Source: a phage. From it: a stretch of DNA of 58,342 nucleotides. Shown piece by piece: positions 8,170 to 28,150 of this stretch. The translations under genes were made by a program, and so were the position numbers. Below the pieces are notes generated by a model. That model was given only the letters and a program-made list of their open reading frames with translations. It searched no databases and had not been told where the DNA came from. Position 1 is the stretch's first letter; the number at the start of each line of letters is the position of its first letter. The stretch lies in sequence record PZ445426.1, one strand, 5' to 3'.

Positions 8170-8183
8170 GAGAGGATCTAAAT

Positions 8184-9107: not shown

Positions 9108-9116
9108 GGATAAGAA

Positions 9117-9524
9117 ATGACCGACACCAAAAAAGGCAAAGTTGCAGTAGCTAAAAGCTTCCGTGATTTTAAAACTGTGAGCCGGGCAAACGACCCGGCA
9201 AACACTAAGCCCATGAATGTGGTTATTCCTGGTGTAGGCGACACTGGCGAAAAACTCTACATTCGTAGCCGTTATTGCACTGAGTACCGTGAAGCTGAAC
9301 TGAAAGCACAACGTCAATTGTTGGCTCTTATGCAGGGTAAAGACGGGGAAGTAACGGATGCTATGAAGGAAGACATCCTTACCCGTTCACTGTGTAACCT
9401 TGTAGCAGGTTGGACCTTTGATGAGCCGCCGACCGTTGACAACGTGTTTGAGTTCTTAACGGAGAACCCAACTGTTCGAGAAGACCTTAACGTATTTGCC
9501 GCCAAAGATAGTAATTTTTTCTAA
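9117..9524 (+). CDS. tail assembly chaperone (lambda G-like)
   Basis: 135-aa ORF before the tape measure gene; ends in slippery heptamer T_TTT_TTC just before its stop. Confidence 0.55.
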   Translation: MTDTKKGKVAVAKSFRDFKTVSRANDPANTKPMNVVIPGVGDTGEKLYIRSRYCTEYREAELKAQRQLLALMQGKDGEVTDAMKEDILTRSLCNLVAGWTFDEPPTVDNVFEFLTENPTVREDLNVFAAKDSNFF

Positions 9525-9922
9525 AAGCGCGCAGACAGTTAATTGATAAGAAGATTCTCCAATGGGAACTAAATAGTAAAGTCCCCGGCGGGGGATCTTC
9601 TTTATTATCGCAACTGCAAAAGGTTGAGGAACAGTCTGGTAAGACGCCGCCTAAGCTTAAAGAATATCGGGAAAAGGAAATACCAATCTGCTTTGAATAC
9701 TTGTCTACTTTATTTGATGACATTTACACCGGAGGAGATTTTAGTTATACAGAATTGCACAGCTATCAGGTAACGATGGGCCTACATCTTCAACCGTACG
9801 AATGCGAAATACTGCGGCAGCTATGGCTTGAAAAGCGCGTGTCTGAAGCTGAACAAAATGCTAAACTCATGGAAAGTCAAATGCAAAATCAGAATAAAGG
9901 TAGAAGGAAAAGGAGAAGGTAA
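9117..9922 (+). CDS. tail assembly chaperone frameshift product (lambda GT-like), programmed -1 shift at 9515..9521
   Basis: canonical X_XXY_YYZ heptamer TTTTTTC at 9515..9521; the -1 frame is open from 9521 to 9922 and ends where the tape measure gene starts. Confidence 0.5.
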
Positions 9923-12900
9923 TGGCCGAAACTGCTTCGCTAGTAATCAGGGTTGACGCGAAAGGGATTAGCACAGCGGACTCCATGCTGCGTAACCTTG
10001 CGCGTACAGGTGACACAGCGGAGCGTTCCGCTCAACGTGTCACATCCAGCTATAAGACATTGTCTAACACATCTAACGAACTTGCAACTGTCACAAGTCG
10101 TTTAGATGCTGCAATTGTAGGAATGATTAGCGTCGACACCATTAACCGTGTTATTTCTCTATCGGACTCCTGGACTATCCTCACCAACAAGCTTGAACTG
10201 GCTCGTACTGGTAATGAAACCGTTGCGGATGCGCAGCAACGCGTGTTTGATATTGCCCAGCGGTCACGTACAAGCTTGGAAGCAACTGCAACTCTATATT
10301 CCCGTCTCCAGCGTGCAATGAAGAATACTGGTATGACGGGTATGGAGCTTGGACGTATCACTGAAACAATTAACAAAGCGATGATTGTTTCCGGTGCAAC
10401 GTCACATGAAGCAAGTGCCGCCCTTATTCAGTTTTCGCAAGCAATGGCATCCGGTGTTTTGCGCGGGGATGAATTCCGTTCTGTTGCAGAACAAGGCCCG
10501 CGCTTAACTCAAATCATGTCCGATGCGTTAGGTGTTACCATTGGACAATTGCGTGAAATGGCGTACAGCGGCAAGTTAACCGCTGATGTGGTTATCAAAT
10601 CGTTGTCTGGTGCTGCGGATACAATTGATAAAGAATTCAGCCGCACTATGCCAACGTTCAACCAGCAATGGACAATTGCGACAAACAACCTAACTAAGTT
10701 TATGGGCGAATCCCAAAAGACTCAAGGTGCGGTTGCTGCATTGGGACAGACGTTTGTTGCATTATCCAAAAACTTAGGAACGGTTGTAACGGTTGGTTCA
10801 GCTTTAGCCACAGTGATTACTGCCCGTATTATTACGGCAATGCTTGCTAAGACTAAAGCGTCTATAGCTGCTGCAAAAGCATCACAGATGGAAGCTGCAC
10901 AAACAGCGGCAACTACTGCGGTGATGCAAAGCTCTATTGGCGTTACCGTGCAGAAAGCGGCTGCGGATCGTGCTGCTTCTCTTGCAGCGTTACAGGTTGC
11001 TCGCGGGTCATTAGCGGTTGCTAAAGGTACAGCAGCGGAAGCAGGTGCACGTCTTGCGCTTATTAACGCCACCCGTGCGCATTCTGCGGCAATTATGGCG
11101 GACGTACAAGCGCGGCAAGCGCTCAATGCTGCGCTTAATGCAACTGTACCAGCCGCAAGCCGGGCAGCTACAGCAATGAGCGTGCTGCGCGGTGCTATGG
11201 GGTTAATTGGCGGTCCTGTTGGTGTAGCAATGCTGGCAGCGGGTGCAATTTACTCCTATAAAGCATCGCTGGAAGCTGGTCGTGCGGAAAACAATCAGTT
11301 TGCGGATAGTGTTGATTCTGTACGCGAGAAACTGATGCAGATGACAGAAGCTCAGTTGGCAGCTAACGCAGTTAAAGCTCGCGCAATCCTCCCCGAACTT
11401 GAAGAGCAAATGAAGCGGGAGCAAACTGCTCTTAAATCTGCAACGGAAACGCAGAAGTTCTATGAAGCACAATTAAAACGTCGTGCTGCGTCCGGTCGTG
11501 ATACAGCTAGTGCCGAGAAAAATTTACAGATTGCTACGGATAACGTCAAGCTTGCTGCTGAACGTGCTGAAGAAGCTCAACGCCGTTACAACAATGTCTT
11601 AGAAATGACAAGCCCTGCTATCGAGAAGATAATTCCGTTAGCTCGTCAGCTTGCAGCGGATATGAAAGCAGTGCTTAATATCAAATCCGGTCCGCTTATT
11701 GACGAGAAAGTGCTTGATCGTTTTAAAGGTCAGTTAGGTGACGTTAACCGTGAGATTGATGTTAACACGGTTAAGGGTGCTGGCAATGCTCGCCAAGCTG
11801 CAATCCTTAGTGGACTGTATCAGACGCTGGGCAAGGATGCGGATACATACGGAAGTCTTATTCGCAAAGTAGCTATGGGCCAGGATGTTAGCTCTGAAGC
11901 AACAAGCGAGTCCGCAAAAGAACTTGTTAAATATGCTCAAGAGCTAGCGGAAGCTTACGGCAAGAATTATGATCTCGAGGAAGCGGAGAGGAACCGAACT
12001 AAAGCGACAAAAGACGGTATTAAAGCAGAACAACAGAACGCCAAAGTTATTGACGATTTACGCAACAAGCTTAACGAAGTAACTACAGGAGTTAAAGAAA
12101 ACGCTAAAGCTAAAGCGCAAGCTGTGGCACTTAATAAGCTCAATGCGTCTGCAACGGCTGCGGAAAAAGCGGAAGTTGTTAGTCTTGCTGCTGCAATTTA
12201 CGATGCAGAAGAAGCTCAAAAGAAACTGGACGAGCGTAAAAAGAATCGTAAGTTTGCTCAGGGTCTGTTAGATGAAGGTATGACAGACTATGAAAAAATC
12301 GCGTACGAGCAAAATACTAAGATTGCTGAGCTTACTGCTAAACAACGAGCGGATGACCTAGCTTACTATCAACTTTATGAGGATGCTAAAACTCAAGTCC
12401 TGAAGAAAGCAAGCATGGAAAGGGAAAATCTGGATAAAGTTCTTATGAACCGAATGATATCCTTTTCTCAGGAATCGTTGGGTATTATACTGTCAGGGCT
12501 GGAAGAAGGTGTTAGTAAACAGAACTTTATTTATAAGGCAATGTTTGCCGCACAGAAAGCAATGCAAATCCCGTCAATCCTTGCTAACACGGAAACGGCA
12601 GCATCCGCAGCGCTTGCATGGGGTACACAGCAAGGCGGTGCTACAATGGGCGCGGCTATGGCTGGAATTGTTAAAGCTATGGGTTATGCGTCCGCTGCTA
12701 CTGTGGGTGGCTTAGCAATCGCTGGCATGGCACACGATGGTATTGATAATGTTCCACGCGAAGGTACATGGTTATTGGATAAAGGTGAACGCGTACTTAA
12801 TGCTCCGTCTAATGACAAGTTAAACCGCTTCCTGGATAGCCAAGCTTCACAACAAGGTGGCGTGAATATGTCTGGTGGTGTTAGCATTGTCCAGTATATC

Positions 12901-13038
12901 ACGGTGCAAGGGAATGGCGATGCTGCACTCACGCAAGCCATGCAGCAAGCGGCTCGTGATGGTGCGGAGCAGGGATATAATAAAGTTCTTACAGACTTTG
13001 CATCCCGAGGAACAATTCGTAGAACTGCAATGGGGTAA
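9922..13038 (+). CDS. tail tape measure protein
   Basis: 1038-aa Ala/Gln-rich, largely helical protein after the chaperone pair; largest tail gene. Confidence 0.8.
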   Translation: MAETASLVIRVDAKGISTADSMLRNLARTGDTAERSAQRVTSSYKTLSNTSNELATVTSRLDAAIVGMISVDTINRVISLSDSWTILTNKLELARTGNETVADAQQRVFDIAQRSRTSLEATATLYSRLQRAMKNTGMTGMELGRITETINKAMIVSGATSHEASAALIQFSQAMASGVLRGDEFRSVAEQGPRLTQIMSDALGVTIGQLREMAYSGKLTADVVIKSLSGAADTIDKEFSRTMPTFNQQWTIATNNLTKFMGESQKTQGAVAALGQTFVALSKNLGTVVTVGSALATVITARIITAMLAKTKASIAAAKASQMEAAQTAATTAVMQSSIGVTVQKAAADRAASLAALQVARGSLAVAKGTAAEAGARLALINATRAHSAAIMADVQARQALNAALNATVPAASRAATAMSVLRGAMGLIGGPVGVAMLAAGAIYSYKASLEAGRAENNQFADSVDSVREKLMQMTEAQLAANAVKARAILPELEEQMKREQTALKSATETQKFYEAQLKRRAASGRDTASAEKNLQIATDNVKLAAERAEEAQRRYNNVLEMTSPAIEKIIPLARQLAADMKAVLNIKSGPLIDEKVLDRFKGQLGDVNREIDVNTVKGAGNARQAAILSGLYQTLGKDADTYGSLIRKVAMGQDVSSEATSESAKELVKYAQELAEAYGKNYDLEEAERNRTKATKDGIKAEQQNAKVIDDLRNKLNEVTTGVKENAKAKAQAVALNKLNASATAAEKAEVVSLAAAIYDAEEAQKKLDERKKNRKFAQGLLDEGMTDYEKIAYEQNTKIAELTAKQRADDLAYYQLYEDAKTQVLKKASMERENLDKVLMNRMISFSQESLGIILSGLEEGVSKQNFIYKAMFAAQKAMQIPSILANTETAASAALAWGTQQGGATMGAAMAGIVKAMGYASAATVGGLAIAGMAHDGIDNVPREGTWLLDKGERVLNAPSNDKLNRFLDSQASQQGGVNMSGGVSIVQYITVQGNGDAALTQAMQQAARDGAEQGYNKVLTDFASRGTIRRTAMG

Positions 13039-13041
13039 TAT

Positions 13042-13626
13042 ATGCTCACTTGGCCTGAAGAGCTTAGACCATCGGAAATGGAATGGTATCTAGTTTCAAA
13101 CGCTGTAGAATTTACAAGCCCCTTCAATGGGGCTTCCCAAACTGTGTCATATCCCGGATCTCGTTGGGAAGCGACACTGACATTTAGCAACTTAAATGAC
13201 TGGCAATCCAGAAAGCTTGAATCAACGTTAGCTAAACTTGATGGCAAAGCTGGTCGCATTATGCTTCAGGATTTTGGTCGCTGGGGTAGGCCTCCAATGG
13301 GATTACCTGTGGTTAATGGCGCAAATAACACTGGGACAACTTTATCAACTAAGGGTTGGACTCCTGACCGTAAGGTATTATGGGAAGGGGACTATATCGC
13401 AGTAAACAATGAATTAAAATTGATAACAGAAGATGCTTGGAGTGATTCTTCTGGTAACGTGATTTTAAATATTGCCCCAATGTTAAGAAGCATCCCTCCA
13501 AACGGTGCAAAGATTGAGACTCAGAAACCACAAGGATCTTTCCGTTTAGCCGAAAACACAAATGGAGTTAAACGTCAACCTGCATTTAATAACTCCTTTA
13601 CTTTAAAATTCTCGGAGGCGTTCTAA
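13042..13626 (+). CDS. minor tail protein (distal tail, by position)
   Basis: 194-aa ORF directly after tape measure. Confidence 0.45.
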   Translation: MLTWPEELRPSEMEWYLVSNAVEFTSPFNGASQTVSYPGSRWEATLTFSNLNDWQSRKLESTLAKLDGKAGRIMLQDFGRWGRPPMGLPVVNGANNTGTTLSTKGWTPDRKVLWEGDYIAVNNELKLITEDAWSDSSGNVILNIAPMLRSIPPNGAKIETQKPQGSFRLAENTNGVKRQPAFNNSFTLKFSEAF

Positions 13627-14210
13627 TGTTATTCAGTCCGTTTAGCGATAGCCTTCTTAGCGCAATGGAGCAACCAAACGTTGCGCTAGTGTTGGCAGCG
13701 GAAATAGACTTCCCTTCCGGTATCACTCGCGTGCATACTGGAACAGGAACTGTTATTATCAATGGTCAGACTTTTCTTGGTGTAGGTACTCTAGGGGATG
13801 TTGGATCGGTTACAGAAGAAAACAGCACAAGCTCAAGCACTATGTCCATGGCACTTAGCGGTCTGGATATGAGTCTTGTAGGGGAGACGTTAAACGAAGA
13901 AGTTATTGGCCGCAATGTTATTTGCTATCTTGCGGTTATGAACGATCAAGGCGTTGTCACTGGTGCAAACGTATTATTTGAAGGGTTTATTACAGATACA
14001 GCTTTACAAGCAGGGCAACAAAATGCTTTGAGCTATGTTATTGCCAATGTCTTTGAGCGTTGGTCACAAGGTTTACCGGATCGCTATACAGATGAAAGTC
14101 AACAACGTTTACATCCAGGTGATCGGTTCTTTAGATATGTTGCACAAATGGCTGAACGTTCAATCTTTTGGGGGAGTAAAAAAGATGCGCCAGGGTTCAC
14201 GTATGAGTAA
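13626..14210 (+). CDS. minor tail protein
   Basis: 194-aa ORF; GGAGG RBS; start overlaps upstream stop. Confidence 0.45.
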   Translation: MLFSPFSDSLLSAMEQPNVALVLAAEIDFPSGITRVHTGTGTVIINGQTFLGVGTLGDVGSVTEENSTSSSTMSMALSGLDMSLVGETLNEEVIGRNVICYLAVMNDQGVVTGANVLFEGFITDTALQAGQQNALSYVIANVFERWSQGLPDRYTDESQQRLHPGDRFFRYVAQMAERSIFWGSKKDAPGFTYE

Positions 14211-14619
14211 AATGCCAGGATGGCAAACACGTTTATTAACCACAGTAAAGGAGTTGGCATCGACTCCTTTTTCTTGGGGCGAAAACGATTGCTGTACGTT
14301 TGCCGCTAAATGTGTTGATGCACAATACAACACAAATATTTATAATCAGATAGCAGGTAAATATAGCACAGAGCTTGGAAGCAAGAGATTCTCAATTGAA
14401 AAAGTCGGGACAGCTTATCTTCCAACCTTGCTTGACGCTTACCTGAGTGAGCGTGTTGATAAGAACTTTGCACAAAGAGGAGATGTGGTTACATTTGAGG
14501 GAGCATTGGGCTTAACTGCTGGCATATTATGGACGGGATATGTATGGGCTATGGGTCCGAACGGTGTGGAAACTTTCCCGCTTAATAAGACCAAAATCAC
14601 GGATATTTGGAGGGTCTAA
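14185..14619 (+). CDS. tail assembly protein, possible NlpC/P60-like cysteine peptidase (lambda K-like)
   Basis: internal ATG at 14185 with GGGGAG RBS preferred over track start 14035; Cys-containing ENDCCTFAAKC segment; position before J-like gene. Confidence 0.35.
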   Translation: MRQGSRMSKMPGWQTRLLTTVKELASTPFSWGENDCCTFAAKCVDAQYNTNIYNQIAGKYSTELGSKRFSIEKVGTAYLPTLLDAYLSERVDKNFAQRGDVVTFEGALGLTAGILWTGYVWAMGPNGVETFPLNKTKITDIWRV

Positions 14620-17258
14620 TGCCACCAGCAATAATTGGAGCAGCAATAGCTTTAGGTGCTTCCGCTGCCGCTGCGGCGGGGTGGATTGCTACGGGTGTAG
14701 CTTTAGCTATTGGTATGGCTGCAACTGCGGCGGGTGCTCTTTTAACTAAGACACCTAATATGAACTTTAATGCTTATAAAGGTCAACAAGAGCGTAAACA
14801 GGTTTTACGAGCAGCCGCAGCGTCTCGAACAGTAGTGTATGGCACAACGGTCGCTTCCGGAGTTATGACGTTTGCTGAGGAGCAGCCTGGAGATCAGGAC
14901 GAAGACGAACTCCTGCATATGGCTCTTGTTGTAGCTTCACATCCATTGGAGGGAATTGGTGATATTTGGCTTGGGGATGACCTTGTACAGACTTTCGAAC
15001 AGTATGTTACTTGGGAATTCCATAACGACCGTCAGACTGTAGATCCATTTATGTTAAGCAATTGCCCTTCCTGGAAAGAGGATATGATCGGGAAAGGGAT
15101 TGCATGGCTTCGTATTAGCTTTAAATTTAATGCGGAAAAATTCCCGTCTGGTTTGCCAAATATTAAGCTTCTTAAAAGAGGTCGCCGTGTATATGATCCT
15201 CGTTCTGGTTATACCATATTTAGCGATAATGCAGCGTTAGTGATACTTGATTACTTCCGCACGTATTTAAAGCGCAAAGATGAAGATATTAACTGGGACC
15301 AATTCAAAGAAGCGGCTAACATCTGTGATGAATACGTCAATAACGCTGATGGTTCTACAGAGCGCCGTTATAAAATCAACGGTGAATTTGAAGTAGATGA
15401 AGCCCCATCCAAAATTCTGGATGCTATGTTGCAAGCTTGTGGTGGTGAGCTAACGTATGTAGCGGGTAAACACGGTCTTCTGGTTGGCGCATATTACGGC
15501 CCAGCAACAATGACGCTGGACGAAAGTTGTATTGCTGGGGATATTAAAATTGTTCCAGAGACTTCTTATAAGGAGCGCACCAACACCATCACAGGGACAT
15601 TTATTGATCCAAAGCAAAACTATGTTGAAGCGGACTTTCCTCCAGTTGTGGTTAAGGAATGGGTGGAAAAGGACGGCGGTGAAATAACGCAAGACATGGA
15701 TTTCCGATTTGTAACAAGTGAATATCAAGCCCAACGTTTGTCTAATATTATTCTACGTCGTAAACGTGTTGGCCGTACAATTGAAATTCCTTGTAACATG
15801 AAGGGTTATAAATTTCGTCCAGGAATGTATGTAAAAGTCACCATTACGCAGATTGGCATGAAGAATGTTGAAATGCGCGTTACTAAATGGTCTTTTAACC
15901 CTAAAGGTGGTGTTAACCTTACACTACGTCAAGATTTCCTGGAAATGTGGGACGATGCAATTGGTAAGCCTATGGACAGACCAGATCTTGTAGACTTGCC
16001 AAGTGGTGGTGTTGCCCAACCTCAAAATCTTCAATACCAGATATTGCAGATTAGTGATGTGGTACAGGGGGTATTATCCTGGACCAACATGGGGCAAGTT
16101 GCATATAACCGCGTAGCTGTGCGACAGGGAGGTGTCACTATTTGGACAGCACAAGTCCCCGGCCAAAGCGTTCGTGTCACTGGGTTGCTGCGTGGGTCGT
16201 ATACTGCGCACGTTCAAGCTGTATCGCACAGTGGCGCAATATCACCGGAAGCTTATCTGGAGTTTAATATTCAAGCCCCACCGCCGCCTTCATCTGTCGA
16301 AATACAGAACGGTTATTTTTCTTTAACTCTTATACCAAAGATTGCAGAGCTCACTAGTGTTAGCACACAATTTGATTTCTGGACGTCTGGTGAAACAAAA
16401 CTGCCGTCTGCTAATACAGATGTTGTTGAGCGCGATGCCACCCGTGAAGGTATGGGAACTATATGGCAGAAAAATAACTTACTCAATGACCACACTTATT
16501 ACTGGTATGTAAGAACTATCAATGCCTTTGGGTCGTCCTCGTTTGTGGAAGTTGAAGCTCGTGTATGGGCAGAAACTGCACAGATCATAGAAATTATGGA
16601 TAAAGAGTTTCAAGAAACTGAAACTTTCAAAAACCTCATGGAGACTGTGCAAAAGGTTGATGACGGTGTAACGGAATTGTCCAAAGTAGTTGAAGGACAA
16701 GCTACAAAAATTGAATCGGTTCAGAGTAGTGTGGGTGATGTTGTTGTTACCGTGCAAGAGCAATCGCAAGCACTAGCAGATCTTAATGGTAAACTTTCTG
16801 CTCAATGGGGACAAAAGGTTCAAATAGACAATAATGGTAACAAATATGTTGCAGGTATGCAGTTAGGTATTGAAGGTAGCGGAGGACAATTCCAGTCTTA
16901 CTTTATGGTGAGCGCGGATAACTTTGCTATTTATAATCCTGTAGCAGGAGCAGCACAGCTTGCATTCGCTATTAAAAACGGTCAAAGTTTCTTGCGAGAA
17001 GCGTTTATTGAAAACGGATCGATTACTAACGCTAAGATTGGTAATGTTATCCAGTCCAATAACTGGAATGGTAACGATCAAGGTTGGGCAATTACAAAAG
17101 ACGGTTATTGCGTATTTAATAACGTGACCGTCAGAGGGACCGTTGTTGCTAACGCTGGTCAATTTGGTTTCAATGGAAATGGAGGTATTACAATTGATAG
17201 TAACGGTATTCGTGTTCCGCTATCAGGTGGTGGTGTTGTCATAGTGGGACGATGGTAA
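14619..17258 (+). CDS. tail tip / host specificity protein (lambda J-like)
   Basis: 879 aa from ATG 14619 (GGAGGG RBS; track start 14607 is TTG); hydrophobic Ala/Gly-rich N-terminus, FN3-like segment, large size. Confidence 0.55.
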   Translation: MPPAIIGAAIALGASAAAAAGWIATGVALAIGMAATAAGALLTKTPNMNFNAYKGQQERKQVLRAAAASRTVVYGTTVASGVMTFAEEQPGDQDEDELLHMALVVASHPLEGIGDIWLGDDLVQTFEQYVTWEFHNDRQTVDPFMLSNCPSWKEDMIGKGIAWLRISFKFNAEKFPSGLPNIKLLKRGRRVYDPRSGYTIFSDNAALVILDYFRTYLKRKDEDINWDQFKEAANICDEYVNNADGSTERRYKINGEFEVDEAPSKILDAMLQACGGELTYVAGKHGLLVGAYYGPATMTLDESCIAGDIKIVPETSYKERTNTITGTFIDPKQNYVEADFPPVVVKEWVEKDGGEITQDMDFRFVTSEYQAQRLSNIILRRKRVGRTIEIPCNMKGYKFRPGMYVKVTITQIGMKNVEMRVTKWSFNPKGGVNLTLRQDFLEMWDDAIGKPMDRPDLVDLPSGGVAQPQNLQYQILQISDVVQGVLSWTNMGQVAYNRVAVRQGGVTIWTAQVPGQSVRVTGLLRGSYTAHVQAVSHSGAISPEAYLEFNIQAPPPPSSVEIQNGYFSLTLIPKIAELTSVSTQFDFWTSGETKLPSANTDVVERDATREGMGTIWQKNNLLNDHTYYWYVRTINAFGSSSFVEVEARVWAETAQIIEIMDKEFQETETFKNLMETVQKVDDGVTELSKVVEGQATKIESVQSSVGDVVVTVQEQSQALADLNGKLSAQWGQKVQIDNNGNKYVAGMQLGIEGSGGQFQSYFMVSADNFAIYNPVAGAAQLAFAIKNGQSFLREAFIENGSITNAKIGNVIQSNNWNGNDQGWAITKDGYCVFNNVTVRGTVVANAGQFGFNGNGGITIDSNGIRVPLSGGGVVIVGRW

Positions 17259-17268
17259 TGAAATATTT

Positions 17269-17290
17269 AAACGGGGCATGTGCCCCGTTT
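17269..17290. terminator. bidirectional terminator, perfect 22-bp palindrome AAACGGGGCATGTGCCCCGTTT
   Basis: read directly between convergent stops at 17258 (+) and 17292 (-). Confidence 0.6.
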
Positions 17291-17291
17291 A

Positions 17292-18293
17292 TTAATACAT
17301 ATTTGGTATAGCGATAGCTGGAGTAGGGATGATAATATTTCTTTCTGGTGGTCTTAAAGAAGGGGAATAGAAGTTACCAATCACTTTATTTCTTTCAGCT
17401 CTTACCTGATTATTATACATATAAACGCCATTATAACGAACATGGTCATACCCGCCATTATAGACGTTGCGCATACCGTAAAAAGCAAGCTGAATTAACC
17501 TGTTACCTATGTCTTGGTTACTTCCCGATAAAATTAAAGTCCTGTCGAATAAGAATGGTTTTCTCACTGTAGAAAATGTGACTTGCCCAATATTGTTTGT
17601 CATTGTAATACCGTCGCCAGGTGACGGTGGAGTATTATTAAAGATTACCAGCTCCATTGTAACGCTACCAGCAACGTCGTCTCGACCCGTATACGCAATG
17701 TTGCGGACTATAATGTTAGAACCATCAAAGCCAACAGAAACGTTTGGATCGCTCCATCTTGCAAACGGGATACCGGATACAGGTAGTTGCAGACTGCCAT
17801 TGACTGTAACCGTACCAGCGTATTGACAAGTCATTAGCTTTGCATTATTAGAGATTGCTGTAAAATCCGTAGAGTTAGATACATATAGACCTGTATTATA
17901 ATTGGCGGCAGGTAATACCTCCATAATTGAACCCGCCCATTGCGGTAGTTTTCCGGTATACCCAAAAGGATTACCACCCCTTAAGACAACTCCAGAATTA
18001 CCGTTCCTGGAAATAGAGGATATATAGAAAGGTGATGCGACAACTAAACCTTGATCGTAAACTTCAATAATTTCAACTGGCCTTGTTGGAATTACAAAAA
18101 TCTCAGACCCGTTAGTGAGAGGGGTATTAATGACTAACGTTTGATCGGATTGACAGCGCTGATCAAATTTAGCGCAAAAGGACAAGGCCCGTAAACCTGA
18201 TGTTATTTCCATTGCAGGTCTACCGTCATTGTAGTCTATATAAATACCCTCTGGCATAATTACTCCAACAATGTGGTTAAAGATGATAGACAA
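17292..18293 (-). CDS. hypothetical protein, inverted gene inside tail module
   Basis: 333-aa ORF on the opposite strand to all neighbouring tail genes; AT-rich divergent region upstream. Confidence 0.5.
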   Translation of the reverse strand: MSIIFNHIVGVIMPEGIYIDYNDGRPAMEITSGLRALSFCAKFDQRCQSDQTLVINTPLTNGSEIFVIPTRPVEIIEVYDQGLVVASPFYISSISRNGNSGVVLRGGNPFGYTGKLPQWAGSIMEVLPAANYNTGLYVSNSTDFTAISNNAKLMTCQYAGTVTVNGSLQLPVSGIPFARWSDPNVSVGFDGSNIIVRNIAYTGRDDVAGSVTMELVIFNNTPPSPGDGITMTNNIGQVTFSTVRKPFLFDRTLILSGSNQDIGNRLIQLAFYGMRNVYNGGYDHVRYNGVYMYNNQVRAERNKVIGNFYSPSLRPPERNIIIPTPAIAIPNMY

Positions 18294-18381
18294 TATTGTT
18301 TTATATTCTAATTTAATTTACCATATTTGTATGCCATAGTGCATCCATTAATTAATCAACTCTGCGAAACAAGAGGTAAAA

Positions 18382-20508
18382 ATGGCAACTCGTCTACATG
18401 GTATTCTGATGGATGGTTTAAATAAACCAATCATCAACGCTACAGTTGCTCTTATTGCTAAAGGGAACACAATTACCGTTCTTAATGGTAGTGAGGCTAT
18501 ATTTCGCACTGACGGATCCGGTGCGTATAATGTAACTGTCCAGACTGGTCATTATAAAGTAATCATCGGACCTCAAGGTATTGAGCCTTATAAAGCTGGG
18601 GAAATCGTCATTTATGGCGATAGTCCTGAAGGTTCGCTGAACGGATATTTAATTAACTGGGCACCGGAAGAATTAACTCCGGACGTTATTAAACAAGTCC
18701 AGCAACTTGTAGCTAACTCTGAGGAATACGCTCTGCAAGCTGGACGGTCTGCTGCTGCTGCAAACGCAGACGCTACAGACGCACGTAACAGCAAAGCGTC
18801 CGCTGCCTCTTCTGCAAGTGAAGCACTTACATATAAGAACGATTCTAAAGCTAACGCAGATGCAGCTAAACAAGCCCAGTCCAGTGCTGCGGGCTCTGCT
18901 AACACTGCAACCCAAGCTGTAACCACAATAACAAATCTCAAAAAGGATGTTGAAAAGTTAAAGTCGGATACACAGACTATTAAGAATAGTGCAGTAAGCG
19001 AGACGCAAGCAATTAAGGACACCGCTGTGTCCGAAACTACCGCGCTAAAAGACGCTGCTGCTGCTTCAGCTACGAAAGCAGCTAATAGCGCCACCGAAGC
19101 TGGAAAACAAGCAGGCAACGCAGGTACAAGCGCAACAAACGCTAAGAACCACGCAGACCGTGCAAAGACAGAAGCTGACCGTGCGGAAGCTGCTGCCAAC
19201 GATGCACCAGAAATCCAGCCGCTGCCTGATGTGTGGATACCATTTAACGATTCGCTGGATATGATTACGGGCTTTTCGCCATCATATAAAAAAATTGTTA
19301 TTGGTGACGATGAAATAACGATGCCTGGCGACAAGATTGTTAAGTTTAAACGTGCATCGAAAGCAACCTATATTAACAAATCTGGTGTGCTGACAGAGGC
19401 TGCCATTGACGAGCCACGATTTGAACGTGATGGTCTGCTTATTGAGGGGCAAAGAACAAACTACATGCTCAATTCGGAAAGTCCAGATTCTTGGGGTAAA
19501 TCTGCAAATATAAATGTCGCTGATGTTGGAACGGATAGTTTTGGTTTTACTTATGGAAAGTTTGTTTGTAATGATTCATTAATTGGGCAAAGTACAACCC
19601 TTAATATGGCATCAGTTTCAAACGCTGGGGCTGTCGATGTATCTGGCGATAATAAGTATGTGACAACATCGTTGAGATTCAAAACGGATGTTGAGCTCCA
19701 GTTAAGGATTAGGTTTGAAGCATTCGATGGCAGCACTACATCTAATCTTGGATATGTTATTGTTAATACACAGTCTTTATCAGTTAACATGAGCGGTGTA
19801 GCTGCCAGCAGGATTACCGCACGAGTCAACAAAGATGAAGCTACTGGTTGGATTTTTGTAGAGGCAACGATTCAAGCAATTGAAGAAATGTACATAACCT
19901 CTGCAATACAATATGTATCAAAAGCTGGTGGTGTTATTGAATCTGGTGACTATATTTATCTGGCCACTCCTCAGGTTGAGGATGGTTTGTGTGCATCATC
20001 TTTTATTATATCAGGAAAGACGGCGGCGACGCGCGCAAGCGATATGGTTACAGTTCCGATTAAGAATAATCTTTATAATCTTCCTTTTACGGTTCTTTGT
20101 GAGGTACATAAGAATTGGTACAAAACACCGAACGCAGCACCGCGAGTTTTTGATACTGGAGGTCATCAAACTGGAGCAGCAATCATTCTTGCATTTGGTT
20201 CTTCAGCAGATTACGATGGGTTTCCATATTGCGATATTGGTAGGTCTAACAGACGGATAAACGAAAATGCATCACTTGAAAAAATGGTTATGGGGATGCG
20301 TGTAAAGTCTGATCAGTCTACATGCGCAGTAAGTAACGGGCGTATATCTAGTGAAACAAAGACAACTTGGACTTATATTCAAAGCTCTGCAACCATTCGT
20401 ATTGGTGGTCAGACAACAACGGGGCAGCGTCATTTATTCGGGCATGTCAGAAATTTTCGAGTATGGCATAAAGCATTGACTGACCGTGAATTGAAGGAGT
20501 CTGTATGA
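18382..20508 (+). CDS. tail fibre protein
   Basis: 708 aa; N-terminal Ala/Ser/Thr/Asn-rich repetitive shaft-like region typical of side tail fibres; own RBS after AT-rich intergenic region. Confidence 0.6.
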   Translation: MATRLHGILMDGLNKPIINATVALIAKGNTITVLNGSEAIFRTDGSGAYNVTVQTGHYKVIIGPQGIEPYKAGEIVIYGDSPEGSLNGYLINWAPEELTPDVIKQVQQLVANSEEYALQAGRSAAAANADATDARNSKASAASSASEALTYKNDSKANADAAKQAQSSAAGSANTATQAVTTITNLKKDVEKLKSDTQTIKNSAVSETQAIKDTAVSETTALKDAAAASATKAANSATEAGKQAGNAGTSATNAKNHADRAKTEADRAEAAANDAPEIQPLPDVWIPFNDSLDMITGFSPSYKKIVIGDDEITMPGDKIVKFKRASKATYINKSGVLTEAAIDEPRFERDGLLIEGQRTNYMLNSESPDSWGKSANINVADVGTDSFGFTYGKFVCNDSLIGQSTTLNMASVSNAGAVDVSGDNKYVTTSLRFKTDVELQLRIRFEAFDGSTTSNLGYVIVNTQSLSVNMSGVAASRITARVNKDEATGWIFVEATIQAIEEMYITSAIQYVSKAGGVIESGDYIYLATPQVEDGLCASSFIISGKTAATRASDMVTVPIKNNLYNLPFTVLCEVHKNWYKTPNAAPRVFDTGGHQTGAAIILAFGSSADYDGFPYCDIGRSNRRINENASLEKMVMGMRVKSDQSTCAVSNGRISSETKTTWTYIQSSATIRIGGQTTTGQRHLFGHVRNFRVWHKALTDRELKESV

Positions 20509-20780
20509 AAGACTTAACGATGAAATTTAAGGATAAGAAAGCATTTGAAGATTTTCTTGTGGTTATTGATTGGGAAGGCAATGAAACTTTGCAAAATCAA
20601 ATAATGCTTGATGTCATAGGTTACACCTATGCCGAAGTTGAAAGTTTATCGGATGAACCAACACATATTCAAAATAAAGGATATTATGTAAACGTAAGGA
20701 TTATTGATGACTCATTTGATTTTACACAGTACAGTAACCACCGTGTCATTCTTGAGCAACCTTTAAGGGAGTGGGCATAA
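20505..20780 (+). CDS. hypothetical protein (possible tail fibre assembly factor)
   Basis: 91-aa ORF whose ATG overlaps the tail fibre stop (ATGA). Confidence 0.4.
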   Translation: MKDLTMKFKDKKAFEDFLVVIDWEGNETLQNQIMLDVIGYTYAEVESLSDEPTHIQNKGYYVNVRIIDDSFDFTQYSNHRVILEQPLREWA

Positions 20781-20782
20781 TT

Positions 20783-21937
20783 ATGGCTAAAACTATCACA
20801 AACATACCAAAAGATATCACTAACCTTAAAAACGGTAAGTTAGATAAGAGTGCAAACCTTAGCGACTTAGCAGATCGCGAAGTTGCCTGGTTAAACGTGC
20901 GTCCTATTGGACCTACTCCTCTTGCGGGGGATCCTGTGGACGACCTTGACGCAACTACAAAACGTTGGGTGCAGAATAAATTTGACAATGGTATCGCCAA
21001 TACATCATGGAGCGTAATAAACGCAGACCAAAGCGCGCCAGCAGTAGCCACCGTGGTTGTCGGCGGGAAAGTAGAGTCAAAATATACCAATCCTAGTTCA
21101 TCACAGTTTGCACGTCTGTACTCAAGTTCTTCATGGGGTTCTTCTAGTTATGCTGTTGTAGAGGCAGAGGGTTCTTCCAAGCACGCTTATAAATTCTATG
21201 AGAATGGCACAGTTGACTTCCGACAGTCAGGGAAGACCAACCCATTCCGCATGTATACAAATATTGGAACATGGAGTGACATAACGGACGCCACGGTATC
21301 CAACTTGACAACTAACGGAATGGACAGGGTGGCCATTTCGAGCGGCTCAGATACTCTGGTGCGCGGATATTCTATCAGCGCCACCAAACCTAATGGATAT
21401 CCAACAAAGGTTGGATATCACATGTATATTCCAGGCAATGATGCATTTGGTATAGCTTGCATGGTAATCGGTGGAGATAACGGAAAATTTTGCCGTTACT
21501 TTTTTGACATTGATGGTCAAATATATGGTTCGACCGATTACGGGAACTTCAGTTATACGAAAAATGGCACTTCTGACTCACGTGTAAAACACGGCATCGC
21601 CCCTGTTGGAGTTGACAAATCATACTCTAATATTAAAGGGCTGGAATTTGTAGAGTTCATTTATGATAATGACGAACAAAATCGAGTTCGGCATGGCGTG
21701 ATTGCACAGCAAGCAGAGGTTGTTGAGCCTTTATATGTCAAGACGCGCAAATATGTTGGCAATAATCCAGGAGAGATTGTTGAACAAAAGGAACTTGACA
21801 CAACACCTATGCTTTTGGACACTATGCATGTCGTGCAAGAACTTATAAAACGGATTGAATCTTTGCAAGAAGATAATAAGAAACTAAAAGAACTCATTTC
21901 TAATCTAAACAATTCACAGACTACAGATCTTCCATAA
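20783..21937 (+). CDS. tail fibre/spike protein with C-terminal S74-type intramolecular chaperone-like domain
   Basis: ATG 20783 preferred over track GTG 20771; SDSRVKHGI motif (Ser...Lys five residues later) followed by a helical C-terminus, resembling the self-cleaving chaperone domain of endosialidase/L-shaped fibre proteins. Confidence 0.55.
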   Translation: MAKTITNIPKDITNLKNGKLDKSANLSDLADREVAWLNVRPIGPTPLAGDPVDDLDATTKRWVQNKFDNGIANTSWSVINADQSAPAVATVVVGGKVESKYTNPSSSQFARLYSSSSWGSSSYAVVEAEGSSKHAYKFYENGTVDFRQSGKTNPFRMYTNIGTWSDITDATVSNLTTNGMDRVAISSGSDTLVRGYSISATKPNGYPTKVGYHMYIPGNDAFGIACMVIGGDNGKFCRYFFDIDGQIYGSTDYGNFSYTKNGTSDSRVKHGIAPVGVDKSYSNIKGLEFVEFIYDNDEQNRVRHGVIAQQAEVVEPLYVKTRKYVGNNPGEIVEQKELDTTPMLLDTMHVVQELIKRIESLQEDNKKLKELISNLNNSQTTDLP

Positions 21938-21953
21938 CCACATCTAACTTCCT

Positions 21954-21980
21954 CAGCGCGTCTTCGGGTGCGCTTTTATT
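21954..21980 (+). terminator. possible intrinsic terminator (AGCGC-gtcttcggGT-GCGCT + TTTTATT)
   Basis: short GC stem and T-tract read directly after the tail fibre gene. Confidence 0.4.
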
Positions 21981-22107
21981 GGCTGTCAATCCTAATTTAC
22001 AAAATCTTTACATTTGGATCATTGTAAAAAGCATGTTAAGGGGTATGCTTTACTTCGTAACCAGTTGGTTACATCCGCTTAACAAATCCATATATGGAGA
22101 TTTTCCT

Positions 22108-22698
22108 ATGTCTGACATGACTCTTTTACCTACTAATCTCGGTGGCGACGGTTTCGGCGGTGAAGCTGGTGCGGCCGGTATTGGTGGCGCGATCGGTGGC
22201 TTAATTGGTTCCTGGATCGGTAATGGTTGGGGTGGCAATGGTGGTTGGGGTGGTCGCGGTAACTTCGCTGGCCCGGTGGAAGTGCAAGCTTCTGTTGACA
22301 CCAACGCAATTCTGCAAGCTATCAACAACGGTACTCTTCAGACCATTCAGGGGCAGAACGGCACTAACCTGACTGTTGAGCGCTCCGCTGCTTCTACCTA
22401 TAACGGCATCACTCAGCAGAACACTCAGAACATGCTGGCTTCCGTTCAGGGCTTTGCTGGTCTGAACACACAGATCCAGGGCGGCACCAGCCAAGTGCTC
22501 GCGGCTCTGTGTAACAACGAAGCAGCTAACATTACCCGTTCCTTCCAGGCGCAGCTAGAAGCTCAGAAGTGTTGCTGCGAAACCAACCTGAACATCGAGC
22601 GTCAAGCAGAAGCTACTCGTGCGCTCCTGCGCGATCAGCACGCACAAGCGCATAATCATAGTTATTCCAACAAAAGAAATAAGTCATTGCTGCAATAA
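22108..22698 (+). CDS. glycine-rich (glycine-zipper) protein with C-terminal Cys cluster
   Basis: 196 aa from ATG 22108 (GGAG RBS); N-terminus MSDMTLLPTNLGG then long GxxxG-rich stretch; KCCCET near C-terminus. Confidence 0.5.
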   Translation: MSDMTLLPTNLGGDGFGGEAGAAGIGGAIGGLIGSWIGNGWGGNGGWGGRGNFAGPVEVQASVDTNAILQAINNGTLQTIQGQNGTNLTVERSAASTYNGITQQNTQNMLASVQGFAGLNTQIQGGTSQVLAALCNNEAANITRSFQAQLEAQKCCCETNLNIERQAEATRALLRDQHAQAHNHSYSNKRNKSLLQ

Positions 22699-22730
22699 CT
22701 GCACCAATTACAAAATACATAACCACATAT

Positions 22731-22919
22731 TCATGCATCGGTAAACTCCCAAATCAGATTATAATTATTTCCCGCTGGTACATAGCGCCCTGGACGTGGA
22801 TCGAAGCTTTTCACTGAAAACTCCAGCGTTCCAGCGCTATATAGTTGCACCTTTTGTCCGTCCCACGGTCCGCCTATCAATTTAAAAGTCTGTCGATAAC
22901 CTTTTGCAGCTCTAGCCAT
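22731..22919 (-). CDS. hypothetical protein
   Basis: ATG at 22919 with AAGGAG RBS (track start 22925 is GTG); last gene of minus-strand block. Confidence 0.45.
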   Translation of the reverse strand: MARAAKGYRQTFKLIGGPWDGQKVQLYSAGTLEFSVKSFDPRPGRYVPAGNNYNLIWEFTDA

Positions 22920-22930
22920 GCTCACTCCTT

Positions 22931-22956
22931 AAATACCCGCGCGAACGCGGGTATTT
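22931..22956. terminator. GC-rich hairpin AAATACCCGCG-cgaa-CGCGGGTATTT (terminator-like on the plus strand)
   Basis: perfect 11-bp stem read directly; T-rich tract follows on the plus strand. Confidence 0.45.
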
Positions 22957-22961
22957 CTTTG

Positions 22962-23168
22962 TTACGCTTCCGGTGTTTCCGGTGATGGTTCATCAGGAAC
23001 AACAATAACGTCGGCTAAAACTTTTAACGCTTCTTGTTGCTCCGCGGTCATATTATTCCAGTAATAGACGTGAATGTAAACTACTGGTTTGTCACCATGT
23101 TGCCACGGTTCGCGACTTACTACATCCGCAGCTAAATCGCTTGCTACGCTCTTTTCTTTACCAGCCAT
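22962..23168 (-). CDS. hypothetical protein
   Basis: 68-aa ORF in minus-strand operon. Confidence 0.4.
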   Translation of the reverse strand: MAGKEKSVASDLAADVVSREPWQHGDKPVVYIHVYYWNNMTAEQQEALKVLADVIVVPDEPSPETPEA

Positions 23169-23200
23169 GCTAATGTACCCCTTTAAGGTTTTACACGCGG

Positions 23201-23494
23201 CTAACCCCCAAAAGTACCCCTATGATCAAGGGTTCTAATGCGCTGCTCCAGCCAACGTGCGTTCTTTTCAAAATGTTTATTGGTGCGCGCTGCTTTGCAC
23301 GCATCAATAATACCTAACTCACATCCAAGCTGCGTTTGGCCCATCACGTAAGAATGGGTTAACATGCTGGATACAAGTTCTTCACATTGTAACTTAATAG
23401 GATGGTCTTGGCATAGTTTCTTTGCTGCATCCTTTAAATCCACAGCTTGGACGCCAGGCGCTATCAGCAAAGCTACGAGTAATAAACGTTTCAT
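23201..23494 (-). CDS. secreted Cys-containing protein (Sec signal peptide)
   Basis: N-terminus MKRLLLVALLIAPGVQA looks like a cleavable signal peptide; start overlaps upstream stop. Confidence 0.5.
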   Translation of the reverse strand: MKRLLLVALLIAPGVQAVDLKDAAKKLCQDHPIKLQCEELVSSMLTHSYVMGQTQLGCELGIIDACKAARTNKHFEKNARWLEQRIRTLDHRGTFGG

Positions 23495-23778
23495 TATGCT
23501 TTCCCTTTACGACATAAGGCTTGAAGTTCCAGAAGCGCATCAATGTCTTCCTGTGGAGTTACACCAACGTGAATTGGATATTTAGCGCGACATTCGTTGC
23601 CAACTTCAACAGTGTGGTTAATGTAGCCGTAAACACATCCCCCAATAACAGTGAAGATAAGCGCAACAATCATTGTAAGGTATTTACCTTGTTTGCGTTC
23701 TTCATTTTGTTTATTAAGCTGACGGTTAAGTTCCACCGCGTCGATTTTACCTTTGTTGTAATCGTCTACTAAGCTCAT
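23494..23778 (-). CDS. small single-pass membrane protein
   Basis: ATG 23778 with GAGGAG RBS; one hydrophobic helix (LTMIVALIFTVIGGCVYGYI). Confidence 0.45.
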   Translation of the reverse strand: MSLVDDYNKGKIDAVELNRQLNKQNEERKQGKYLTMIVALIFTVIGGCVYGYINHTVEVGNECRAKYPIHVGVTPQEDIDALLELQALCRKGKA

Positions 23779-23841
23779 TTTGCATCTCCTCTTGTTGTAT
23801 ACATATATTAAAACAGACCCGCGAAGGGTCTGCAAGTAGAA

Positions 23842-25827
23842 TTAGGCGTATCCCATGTCTTCGAGATACTTCTCTGCCTTAGCTATATAAGCATCATAAT
23901 CTATGTCGTCCGGTATTTTATCCGGTAGCGTCATGATTGGGACACCTCCCGCGCTACCAGCTACACGGTTGCCCGAGTTAGCATAGATTATTTCAGGGGT
24001 TTCTTCATTGGTGCTTAAATACCAGCGTACAACCTTACCCAAAAATTCGCCATTCCATACCGCGCCACCTTTCACCGCACGTAGGATAATGAATTTTCTA
24101 ATATCGTTGCAATTGCGTATAGTACGAGAAACAGGCGTACCGTGGGCCAAACATTCACATACAGCTTCCATAATAATTTCACCAGTACAGTTCTTTTGAA
24201 GTCCTGTCTTGGCAAACCAGCCCTTACGCTTAACTTCAACGTTACCTTCTGCATCAGGTTCTTTGACAGCTACATAGTTGTTAACGTTCGCGCTATATAG
24301 CTTGTCATAATAAGTGGATTCCATTTCAAAACCTGTGACGGATTCCCACCACTTGATCATGTTATCAACGAAGTCCTGCATGTGGTCGGGATACTTAACC
24401 ACAATACCATCGGTATTCGCTGAAATTACTTTAACACCGTTCAGCTCAAATGCTTCAATAAGCATTAACAGTGATAGTTGCCCTGTGATAGTTACCTGTA
24501 TCAATAATTGCGGCGCGTACAGTACGGACCACATAGACCCTAACTTACCGAACGATCCGTTGATTACGATCTTCAGCGTGTTGGCTGTGTTCTTGTCCCC
24601 TGAGTGCTTAGCTGCAATACGGCGATCTACAATACTTTTATAAACACGAAGGAACGCTGGTCCCAACTGCTCAGGGTATAATCCCTGATTAAGAATAATT
24701 GAAGGGTAATAAGACGTTACGTCAATGTCCCGCTTCTTAATACCAGGCTCTTTACCGTGACCAGCACACTCTTCGGAGCTATGCAAACCGCCAATACCCA
24801 TACGGTAGACACCGTCCGCAATCTTGATTTCAAGACCTGTTAACGCTGGGGGCAAGCTAACGCCACCGTTATCGCTAACAACAAAACGGCAGTCCCGAAC
24901 AATATCCAAAACACTATTCATCAGAGGTGTTTGAAAACGAATAAAGTCCGGTATGTTATACGCATACTTTGTTCCAGGATAAACTTGGGGACGCTGGGGA
25001 CGCACACCAGTTAATGCTTGAATTTCGTGTTTAATTACGTCTTCTGCAATCTGCGCATCAGAACGTGAACGCAGATCCACACCGTATTCTTGCGACATAA
25101 TTTCACGAAGGTGCAAAGGTTCTTGTAATGCAATAAAACATTCTTCTGTCTGTACAAGGTCGTTAATACAGTACCAGCGTACAATTAACATCTGGTCCTG
25201 CGTCAACATTGTATTTGGCTTGAACGGTAAATCCTGCATACGGCGAGTATGTACACGTCCGCCATATTGTTTCAAACCACCAGATCCAGGCAGAACTTCC
25301 ATAATATCAATGTGGTTAACGTTCTGCATACGCTTAAGGCGGTAACTCTTCAACACATCGGAAGGACGCCAATCTTCCACGATTATCTTATCGGTTGCGT
25401 GTTTAAGCTGCGCATTAGAACAGCCGTTAAGCGCAAGCGTAGCAATGGGCATATCGTACCCATTACCGTTAAAGCTTACGATAAGGAAGTTTGTCATTAC
25501 CCAGTTAAGTAACAAGCAATTTAAACTGCAACCGTGATACATTTCAAAGTAGACAACTTTCTTAGTTCGTACTCCGCGGAATGCGATCAAGAAATAGTTT
25601 GGATAACATTCGATATCATATACAAGCGGTTCGCGGTTGATCCATGCTTGAATGAGTTCGTCCTGAGTATACAGGTTATATTGGAAGTTTCGAGCTTCCT
25701 CTAGATTTGGCAAATAATCCGGGCGCTCCCAAGTGCGCTCCGGCGGTAAACGCTTAACCTTTTCTTTCTTCACTTTTGGCTCAGGCGGCAAGTCCTGCCA
25801 AAAGAAACCAATAGCATCGGTCCGCAT
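23842..25827 (-). CDS. DNA polymerase, family-B-like, with 3'-5' exonuclease domain
   Basis: Exo I-like YDIE; DVTSYYPSIIL (motif A DxxSLYPS-like); KIVINGSFGKLG (motif B-like); ATG 25827 overlaps upstream stop (TAATG). Confidence 0.7.
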   Translation of the reverse strand: MRTDAIGFFWQDLPPEPKVKKEKVKRLPPERTWERPDYLPNLEEARNFQYNLYTQDELIQAWINREPLVYDIECYPNYFLIAFRGVRTKKVVYFEMYHGCSLNCLLLNWVMTNFLIVSFNGNGYDMPIATLALNGCSNAQLKHATDKIIVEDWRPSDVLKSYRLKRMQNVNHIDIMEVLPGSGGLKQYGGRVHTRRMQDLPFKPNTMLTQDQMLIVRWYCINDLVQTEECFIALQEPLHLREIMSQEYGVDLRSRSDAQIAEDVIKHEIQALTGVRPQRPQVYPGTKYAYNIPDFIRFQTPLMNSVLDIVRDCRFVVSDNGGVSLPPALTGLEIKIADGVYRMGIGGLHSSEECAGHGKEPGIKKRDIDVTSYYPSIILNQGLYPEQLGPAFLRVYKSIVDRRIAAKHSGDKNTANTLKIVINGSFGKLGSMWSVLYAPQLLIQVTITGQLSLLMLIEAFELNGVKVISANTDGIVVKYPDHMQDFVDNMIKWWESVTGFEMESTYYDKLYSANVNNYVAVKEPDAEGNVEVKRKGWFAKTGLQKNCTGEIIMEAVCECLAHGTPVSRTIRNCNDIRKFIILRAVKGGAVWNGEFLGKVVRWYLSTNEETPEIIYANSGNRVAGSAGGVPIMTLPDKIPDDIDYDAYIAKAEKYLEDMGYA

Positions 25828-26780
25828 TAGACACGTTCTCCAATTAATACACCGCGAAGATTTTCCCCAAAGAATGCGCAAGGTTGCGGATACAAACTAA
25901 AGTCCGCGGTCTTAACCACTTTTTCAAGCAATAGCAGGATATCAATATTGTACACTCCCGTTATTGTTCGGTCCTGTAATACGAAGCTTGCACCTTCTGC
26001 ATCGTCATAATGGGTACGCGCCAGACCGTTTTCAATATATACACGAGGTCTGTCTTCAGCGAAAGGTTTGATTTTATGCAAGCCTTCAAAAAGACCTGGA
26101 TCAACAGGATGTGCATTGCATTGAACATTTAAAATACGACGTATATCGGGCCACTCCGCATCAATAAGCTGTGTCCGCAACCAGCGACCTTCCGGATAAT
26201 GAAACGTCACATTGTTCTTGCTAACCTGAATATGTGTCGGGTTAGCTTTAATGCGCAGTATTTCTTTGATAGCAACAGACGGTATTATGCAGTCAATAGG
26301 GAATTGATTACCAAACCAGTATTCCGCAATTGTGACGTTATTTGTAGCAAACAGGCTACCGTTATTGATCAGGATACCGCAAGCCCAAGGACGGGATGCG
26401 TCTGAGCCTACAAACGGGGCAACAGATTTCACACCATGTACGAAGCGAGCACCGTCTATTTCGTATAAATCGCCTTCAGGGAATACGTGAGGCGTTTCTT
26501 TATCAATACAGCGTATAGCAACACGAAACGGACCTGACTTAATATTCAGCTTACCGTTGGCCATCATTGTTAGCTGTACTGTTTCGTCGCAGTTTGAGAT
26601 AGCTTTAATCATAGGCCCAGCTTCGGGCTTACAATCAATATTCAGCTCAATAGGGCTACCCAGTGCAATAACACCGTTAAAGCCCTGTACCTGCCCGTCA
26701 CGAATAAGAAAACTGGTAAGCCCTTCTACCAGTTCCTTTTTAGCAACGGAGCCTTGAACAAATTTAAGAGCGTCTAACAT
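25827..26780 (-). CDS. hypothetical protein
   Basis: 317-aa ORF, GAGGA RBS, translationally coupled to the polymerase gene; no motif recognised. Confidence 0.5.
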   Translation of the reverse strand: MLDALKFVQGSVAKKELVEGLTSFLIRDGQVQGFNGVIALGSPIELNIDCKPEAGPMIKAISNCDETVQLTMMANGKLNIKSGPFRVAIRCIDKETPHVFPEGDLYEIDGARFVHGVKSVAPFVGSDASRPWACGILINNGSLFATNNVTIAEYWFGNQFPIDCIIPSVAIKEILRIKANPTHIQVSKNNVTFHYPEGRWLRTQLIDAEWPDIRRILNVQCNAHPVDPGLFEGLHKIKPFAEDRPRVYIENGLARTHYDDAEGASFVLQDRTITGVYNIDILLLLEKVVKTADFSLYPQPCAFFGENLRGVLIGERV

Positions 26781-28130: not shown

Positions 28131-28150
28131 ATTTCCTCCAATGACTAAAA

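Follow-up and report, generated by a model that had tools for sequence, protein, structure and literature searches.

What is a single inverted gene doing between the tail tip and the tail fibre genes of a phage? In the window, by which we mean the whole 58,342-nucleotide stretch of phage DNA analysed here (sequence record PZ445426.1), one minus-strand gene faces the J-like gene across a hairpin and diverges from the lateral tail fibre gene. The original prediction was that an independently transcribed gene at this junction would be a determinant of host range or of superinfection exclusion. Our survey of strands and open reading frames (ORFs) across the plus-strand structural block (1..22698) bore out the lone inversion: the gene is the sole substantial minus-strand ORF that is not nested in a longer plus-strand ORF. 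We are highly confident that this gene, 17292..18257, encodes a terminal receptor-binding protein (RBP) of the LptD-targeting type, a soluble protein of the virion. The features that the argument needs are listed below.

14607..17258, plus strand: J-like central tail fibre/tail tip protein (Pfam Phage_Tail_Tip, Ig_J_second and Phage-tail_3; PHROG 31, central tail fibre J)
17141..17258, plus strand: last 39 codons of J, GQFGFNGNGGITIDSNGIRVPLSGGGVVIVGRW, which co-segregate with the RBP cassette (homology break and shared motif)
17268..17291, no strand assigned: hairpin terminator separating J (stop codon 17256-17258) from the convergent RBP gene (stop codon 17292-17294)
17292..18257, minus strand: predicted terminal RBP, 321 aa, Pfam DUF6453, LptD-targeting Rtp44/RBP-Oekolampad family (profile, PDB and homologue matches)
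18258..18381, no strand assigned: divergent intergenic region between the RBP gene and the tail fibre gene, which starts at 18382
18382..20508, plus strand: lateral tail fibre protein, 708 aa (Pfam phage_tail_N; PHROG 1419)

The ORF originally described, 333 aa counted from a TTG (17292..18293), is present, but its start codon did not stand. Almost certainly, judging from the homologues, the gene starts at ATG 18257 rather than at TTG 18293. This ATG is preceded by GGAG 5 nt upstream and yields 321 aa, matching the length of the 966-nt coding sequences annotated in phages FritzHoffmann, SD04 and SA126VB, and the homologues all align from Met1 at 'MPEGIYI'. We rejected two ORFs that lie within the gene on the plus strand (17348..17572 and 17509..17826) as spurious antisense frames, for which the homologous annotations hold no support. 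The J-like ORF likewise offers two starts, giving 883 aa from TTG 14607 or 879 aa from ATG 14619; the second, which corresponds to the J proteins of SA126VB and SD04, is probably the one used. ATG 14619 abuts the end of the preceding ORF, also at 14619.

The phage itself could be placed from its genome. By megablast of 9000..30000, its nearest relatives are the Seuratvirus phages Dru_SM1, SA126VB, SA80RD, SD04, CAjan and others, at 89-94% identity, and the nearest whole-genome relatives infect E. coli. On this similarity, the window phage is Seuratvirus-like, of the subfamily Queuovirinae. It also encodes genes for 7-deazaguanine DNA modification on the minus strand at 28202..32596:

28202..28849, minus strand: FolE
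28851..29360, minus strand: QueD
30787..31494, minus strand: QueC, stand-alone, without fusion to a Gat domain
31889..32596, minus strand: radical-SAM QueE-like protein

Together, FolE, QueD, QueC and the QueE-like protein make up the 7-deazaguanine pathway of Queuovirinae. According to Maffei et al. 2021 (PMC8594841), unfused QueC marks Seuratvirus and dPreQ0 modification. Because the window QueC is not fused to a Gat domain, it points to this genus and this modification. A tRNA scan of the window found no tRNA genes.

The inverted gene belongs to a well-delimited protein family. Its product matches Pfam DUF6453 (PF20051) at an E value of 4.3e-121 (404 bits against a cut-off of 25), the match spanning protein residues 4-296 and model positions 1-289 of 291, and it matches PHROG 1265 at 1.7e-113. 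By tblastn, homologues are found in 422 phage records. The best of them is bas20_0020 of FritzHoffmann (Bas20), with 85% amino acid identity and the same position and orientation; Dhillonvirus phages (~62%), Rtp-like Drexlerviridae (~36-45%) and ~50 kb Klebsiella phages (~35%) follow, and Cronobacter and Salmonella phages also carry homologues. A sequence search of the PDB with E up to 1 returned chain C of 9RPT, 9RPW and 9RQI as the sole match (9rpt_C: E 1.2e-133, residues 2-321 on 2-321, 63.75% identity over 320 ungapped residues). This chain is the RBP of phage Oekolampad, whose structure in complex with LptDE was determined by cryo-EM (Dunbar et al. 2025, PNAS, PMC12685063). Since the two proteins are 64% identical, the window RBP presumably shares the fold of the solved chain, a pair of beta-sandwiches whose tip carries loops. 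For the FritzHoffmann RBP, the model of Black et al. 2025 (PMC13035648) shows the same two-beta-sandwich fold; our own single-sequence AlphaFold2 model (mean pLDDT 31, pTM 0.21) was unusable.

Position agrees with family. In every locus that we inspected (FritzHoffmann, SD04, SA126VB, Rtp, where the gene is rtp44, and PEC9), the RBP gene is the next gene after the J homologue and is convergent with it; in the window, the stop codons of the two genes are 33 bp apart. Maffei et al. 2021 (PMC8594841) define an 'RBP locus downstream of gpJ'. The family match, the identity to the solved homologue and this location are the grounds on which we assign the gene as the terminal RBP, and the host-range part of the original prediction is thereby supported, the gene being a member of the LptD-targeting RBP family.

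The same gene could be read as a non-structural 'moron' whose product is a membrane protein or serves superinfection exclusion. PHROG 1265 has the category 'moron, auxiliary metabolic gene and host takeover / membrane protein', several GenBank records say 'membrane protein', the gene has the opposite strand and its own terminator, and in sister phages the slot is taken by a lipoprotein of the exclusion type. However, the 'membrane protein' label is an unverified annotation, and the protein itself does not look like one. It has no signal peptide or lipobox, its N-terminus (MPEGIYIDYNDGRP) is hydrophilic, and its highest 19-residue Kyte-Doolittle mean is just 1.0, so that no membrane helix is predicted. 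The Oekolampad homologue was obtained in soluble form on purification, and it bound LptDE at the extracellular face (PMC12685063). Exclusion in this RBP family is carried out by a separate 6-kDa lipoprotein, Rtp45, and a search of PADLOC, as of NCBIfam, returned no match for the RBP. We give the moron reading almost no credence. The original idea of exclusion at the inverted slot thus fails for the window gene, but it holds for the 77-aa lipoprotein that occupies the slot in sister Seuratviruses.

If the gene encodes a terminal RBP, its receptor has to be named, and both the receptor and the binding mode proposed here come from the literature on homologues rather than from the window phage. 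Mutants of lptD resist Bas01, 02, 14, 18, 19, 20 and 25, phages that share the RBP module; mutations in the lptD loops block them, and three of them (Bas19, Bas20 and Bas25) belong to the Queuovirinae (Maffei et al. 2021, PMC8594841). The same study found that FritzHoffmann requires LptD for infection. OzMSK, a distant member with an RBP 39% identical to that of Rtp, is LptD-dependent as well (Black et al. 2025, PMC13035648), and LptD is used by every family member whose receptor has been tested, across an identity range of 33-100%. By analogy with these phages, the terminal receptor of the window phage is very probably LptD. An RBP of the same tail-tip family could nevertheless recognize something other than E. 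coli LptD, either another outer-membrane protein or the LptD of another host, and the receptor-contacting loops have diverged in a way that would fit: identity to the Oekolampad RBP drops to 47-50% over residues 242-321, and loop 296-306 is replaced, reading FYSPSLRPPER in the window against YSRQQFQMPGK in the solved chain. The replacement includes residue 299, a named LptD-contact residue that is Gln in Oekolampad, where it hydrogen-bonds Ser350 of LptD (Dunbar et al. 2025, PMC12685063), and Pro in the window. The RBPs of SA126VB and SD04 have the Oekolampad-type loop, YSRQQFQMPG(K/R), ending in GR. The occurrence of homologues in phages of Klebsiella, Cronobacter and Salmonella also leaves room for a different receptor. 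Yet FritzHoffmann, which is 85% identical and depends on lptD, has the same FYSPSLRPPER loop, so that neither Pro299 nor the altered loop is an argument against LptD. Even at 33-39% identity, family members (the Rtp44 group and OzMSK) still use LptD, and the closest whole-genome relatives of the window phage are E. coli phages. We judge a receptor other than E. coli LptD to be improbable. What the preferred reading provides is an in silico prediction of the terminal receptor of this phage: LptD, an essential and conserved outer-membrane protein. The FYSPSLRPPER-type loop may engage LptD otherwise than in the solved Oekolampad complex, and might escape the resistance conferred by D352Y and Y671N.

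To find where the RBP unit begins and ends, the window can be read against its relatives. Compared with Dru_SM1, the closest of them, identity is 96.7% up to 17140, is then lost, and is back exactly at 18382, the ATG of the lateral fibre gene. Homology with KurtStettler and CAjan likewise resumes exactly at 18382. The region 18258..18381 thus belongs to the module that is swapped relative to Dru_SM1, and the conserved 5' end of the lateral fibre gene forms the right-hand boundary. SA126VB and SD04 carry the same type of cassette; against these two, the flanks are 95-99% identical, the RBP body (~17300-18150) is 55-70% identical in nucleotides, and the first ~40 codons of the RBP gene are 83-96% identical. 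A conserved N-terminus joined to a divergent body is, from this pattern, the expected design for an attachment end followed by a diversifying or exchanged receptor-binding part. The original prediction had named an invariant gene with a clear housekeeping homologue as the outcome that would count against it; the body here varies between well-conserved flanks, and the entire module is replaced in other sister phages. On these homology breaks, 17141..18381 is an exchangeable cassette. The J gene flanking the RBP is ~68-75% identical in nucleotides to that of FritzHoffmann, and the RBP allele, which is closest to that of this Nonagvirus, looks horizontally acquired relative to the Seuratvirus backbone.

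That the cassette extends into the end of J is matched by the J protein itself. The window J has no C-terminal receptor-binding domain of the lambda-J type, whereas J proteins are 983-1040 aa long where the slot holds a lipoprotein (Dru_SM1, KurtStettler and CAjan). In an alignment of nine J C-termini, a motif of ~35 aa, G.F.F.G...I.I...G..V.L..GG.V.VG(R/T)(W/F), ends the J proteins of Rtp, PEC9, FritzHoffmann, SD04, SA126VB and the window. All J proteins that end in this motif partner a DUF6453 RBP and have no binding domain of their own at the C-terminus; those of Dru_SM1, KurtStettler and CAjan do not have the motif. The description of a short, motif-ending J as a trait of this RBP family derives from the present analysis and not from the literature. 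The C-terminal peptide of J is presumed to be the docking site for the RBP.

These elements suggest how the tail tip might work. The lateral tail fibres would first contact surface glycans; the RBP, docked onto the C-terminus of J, would then bind the outer-membrane LPS translocon LptD(E), at its extracellular face and in its lumen, through the loops of the distal RBP tip, and this binding would lead to irreversible adsorption and DNA ejection. The cassette would comprise four elements, namely the J C-terminal docking peptide, the bidirectional terminator, the RBP gene and an AT-rich promoter region that belongs to this gene. Converging on J, it is exchanged horizontally among Queuovirinae, Dhillonvirus and Drexlerviridae, and in this way these phages would switch their terminal receptor. 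Publications already cover the locus type, the protein family, the receptor and the complex structure, so the result adds no new principle; the exact bounds of an exchangeable host-recognition module, 17141..18381, are useful for phage engineering and for the choice of phages in cocktails.

Beyond the right-hand boundary lies the rest of the lateral fibre module (18382..22698, plus strand), which is also mosaic: the first 570-1100 nt of the gene for the 708-aa protein are conserved, and similarity then decays or disappears. Two further genes follow.

20771..21937, plus strand: 388-aa protein with a Peptidase_S74 intramolecular-chaperone domain
21979..22698, plus strand: glycine-rich 239-aa ORF after the 388-aa gene (PHROG 9288)

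Between the stop codons of J and the RBP gene stands the hairpin. It had been described as a perfect 22-bp palindromic terminator (17269..17290), and the shared hairpin terminator is there, but a strict perfect palindrome is not: two 11-nt arms (17268-17278 and 17281-17291) are 100% complementary and flank a 2-nt centre that is non-palindromic. RNA folding gives a 10-bp stem with a 4-nt loop, at -17.2 kcal/mol on the plus strand and -17.8 kcal/mol on the minus strand, and z-scores against shuffled sequences of -3.4 and -4.9, respectively. A terminator pattern scan made a call on the minus strand only, and in the SA126VB record the homologous site carries annotated rho-independent terminators, one on each strand. 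The terminator is probably bidirectional. All nine phages compared, from three taxa, have a GC-rich hairpin between convergent stops. Because it is present in all of them despite differing sequences, the hairpin is a maintained feature and not a product of chance.

On the other side of the RBP gene, the original prediction of an AT-rich divergent region shared with the tail fibre gene proved accurate, as 18258..18381 has 27% GC, compared with 44% for the window. Since the RBP gene lies on the opposite strand from its neighbours, it is transcribed independently, as had been proposed. This region must hold the RBP promoter and probably also holds that of the tail fibre gene. Ahead of the RBP gene, in 18258..18381, we found no sequence that fits the sigma-70 consensus well, only 8-of-12 matches, such as CATACA-17-TAGAAT at 18333..18305 on the minus strand. 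A block of 44 nt within it (18292..18335) recurs unchanged in FritzHoffmann and SD04, and with a single mismatch in SA126VB. The window contains the block just once, which rules it out as a recurrent late-promoter motif. In sister Seuratviruses, the 77-aa lipoprotein of the slot is preceded by a near-consensus sigma-70 promoter, TTGACT-16-TATATT, at the following sites:

Dru_SM1 (locus L005), 3453..3536: TTGACT-16-TATATT promoter
KurtStettler (locus L006), 3382..3465: TTGACT-16-TATATT promoter
CAjan (locus L007), 3545..3627: TTGACT-16-TATATT promoter

Because the RBP cassette of the window has no promoter comparable to these, the two kinds of slot occupant, RBP and lipoprotein, appear to be expressed at different times.

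What the window cassette does not have is the exclusion lipoprotein that accompanies the RBP elsewhere. In Rtp, the two genes form an operon, with the exclusion lipoprotein Rtp45 (Pfam PF24052) directly upstream of the RBP gene, and in Dhillonvirus a lipoprotein of PF24052, PEC9_33 or bas18_0026 of Oekolampad, precedes the RBP in the same operon; the window lacks such a gene. This absence, like that of a convincing sigma-70 promoter, counts against our preferred reading of the gene. No lipoprotein-like ORF of at least 20 aa occurs in the 124 bp upstream of the RBP gene. Searching all six frames of the window by tblastn with Rtp45 and PEC9_33 and with a two-sequence profile yielded no relative of the Rtp45 family (best E 0.7-0.9), and a profile search of the six-frame translation found no relative of the CAjan-type lipoprotein. 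A lipobox regular expression applied to all window ORFs matched only within other genes, and these matches are apparently spurious. The annotated loci of FritzHoffmann, SD04 and SA126VB likewise hold the RBP gene alone, with no Rtp45-type lipoprotein. One tentative explanation, which we think is possible but doubtful, is that Queuovirinae with an LptD-targeting RBP have dropped the Rtp45-family lipoprotein, and either do without receptor blocking or encode an unrelated and undescribed factor elsewhere. This estimate was given jointly with a related second possibility, the altered engagement of LptD by the variant loop.

Two small genes downstream of the fibre module may be mentioned in this connection. 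A 97-aa protein (23201..23494, minus strand) has a clear cleavable signal peptide (MKRLLLVALLIAPGVQA|VD), and a 113-aa small membrane protein (23494..23835, minus strand) has one hydrophobic segment; neither has a match in Pfam or PADLOC. It is possible, if speculative, that they are accessory proteins that act at the envelope and candidates for the missing exclusion function.

Our searches also reached phages beyond these groups. The RBP homologue that ranks second, with 77% identity, lies in MG065669.1 (Campylobacter phage A123; 41971..42933), and a lipoprotein of the Rtp45 family occurs in seven such 'Campylobacter' phage records. The 'Campylobacter' host label looks doubtful for genomes that resemble those of coliphages. 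Weak, significant relatives of both halves of the LptD pair are found in phiEco32-like podoviruses (Gordonclarkvirinae/Kuravirus), as a DUF6453-like segment (26-31% identity over ~150-210 aa, E 1e-7 to 1e-11) and a lipoprotein like Rtp45 and PEC9_33 (E 1e-6 to 1e-8). Examples are the following.

NC_018835.1 (NJ01), 26934..27593 and 72474..72626: relatives of the LptD pair
NC_010324.1 (phiEco32), 66053..66298: relative of the LptD pair

The BASEL-2 paper names no protein receptor for phiEco32-like podoviruses; these matches hint that they may also engage LptD.

Among known systems, FritzHoffmann (Bas20, Nonagvirus) is like the window in its J gene, minus-strand RBP gene and lateral tail fibre gene, in having no lipoprotein there, and in its 44-nt block and loop variant, and differs in genus and backbone. 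Oekolampad (Bas18) has an RBP of the same Pfam family, encoded directly downstream of J and convergent with it; it is a Dhillonvirus, whereas the window phage is a Seuratvirus with 7-deazaguanine genes, and the two RBPs differ in loop 296-306, with Gln299 in Oekolampad against Pro. Another Dhillonvirus, PEC9, shares the C-terminal J motif. In the more distant Rtp (Drexlerviridae), the DUF6453 protein Rtp44 is 36% identical to the window RBP, its gene converges on rtp43, the J homologue, with an intervening hairpin, and the J motif is present. CAjan, KurtStettler and Dru_SM1 have the same inverted slot between J and the lateral fibre gene, the same flanks and a hairpin between the stops, but the slot holds the 77-aa lipoprotein, there is no separate RBP gene, and J is 100-160 aa longer with its own C-terminal domain; the receptor of KurtStettler is LamB (Maffei et al. 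2021, PMC8594841). The pb5 protein of T5 has no detectable similarity to the window RBP in the PDB sequence search (E up to 1) and a different receptor, FhuA. In function, however, the two are analogous: pb5 is a dedicated monomeric RBP that sits non-covalently on the tip of the central fibre and binds an outer-membrane beta-barrel through loops, and such an RBP usually has an exclusion lipoprotein (Llp in T5) as its partner.
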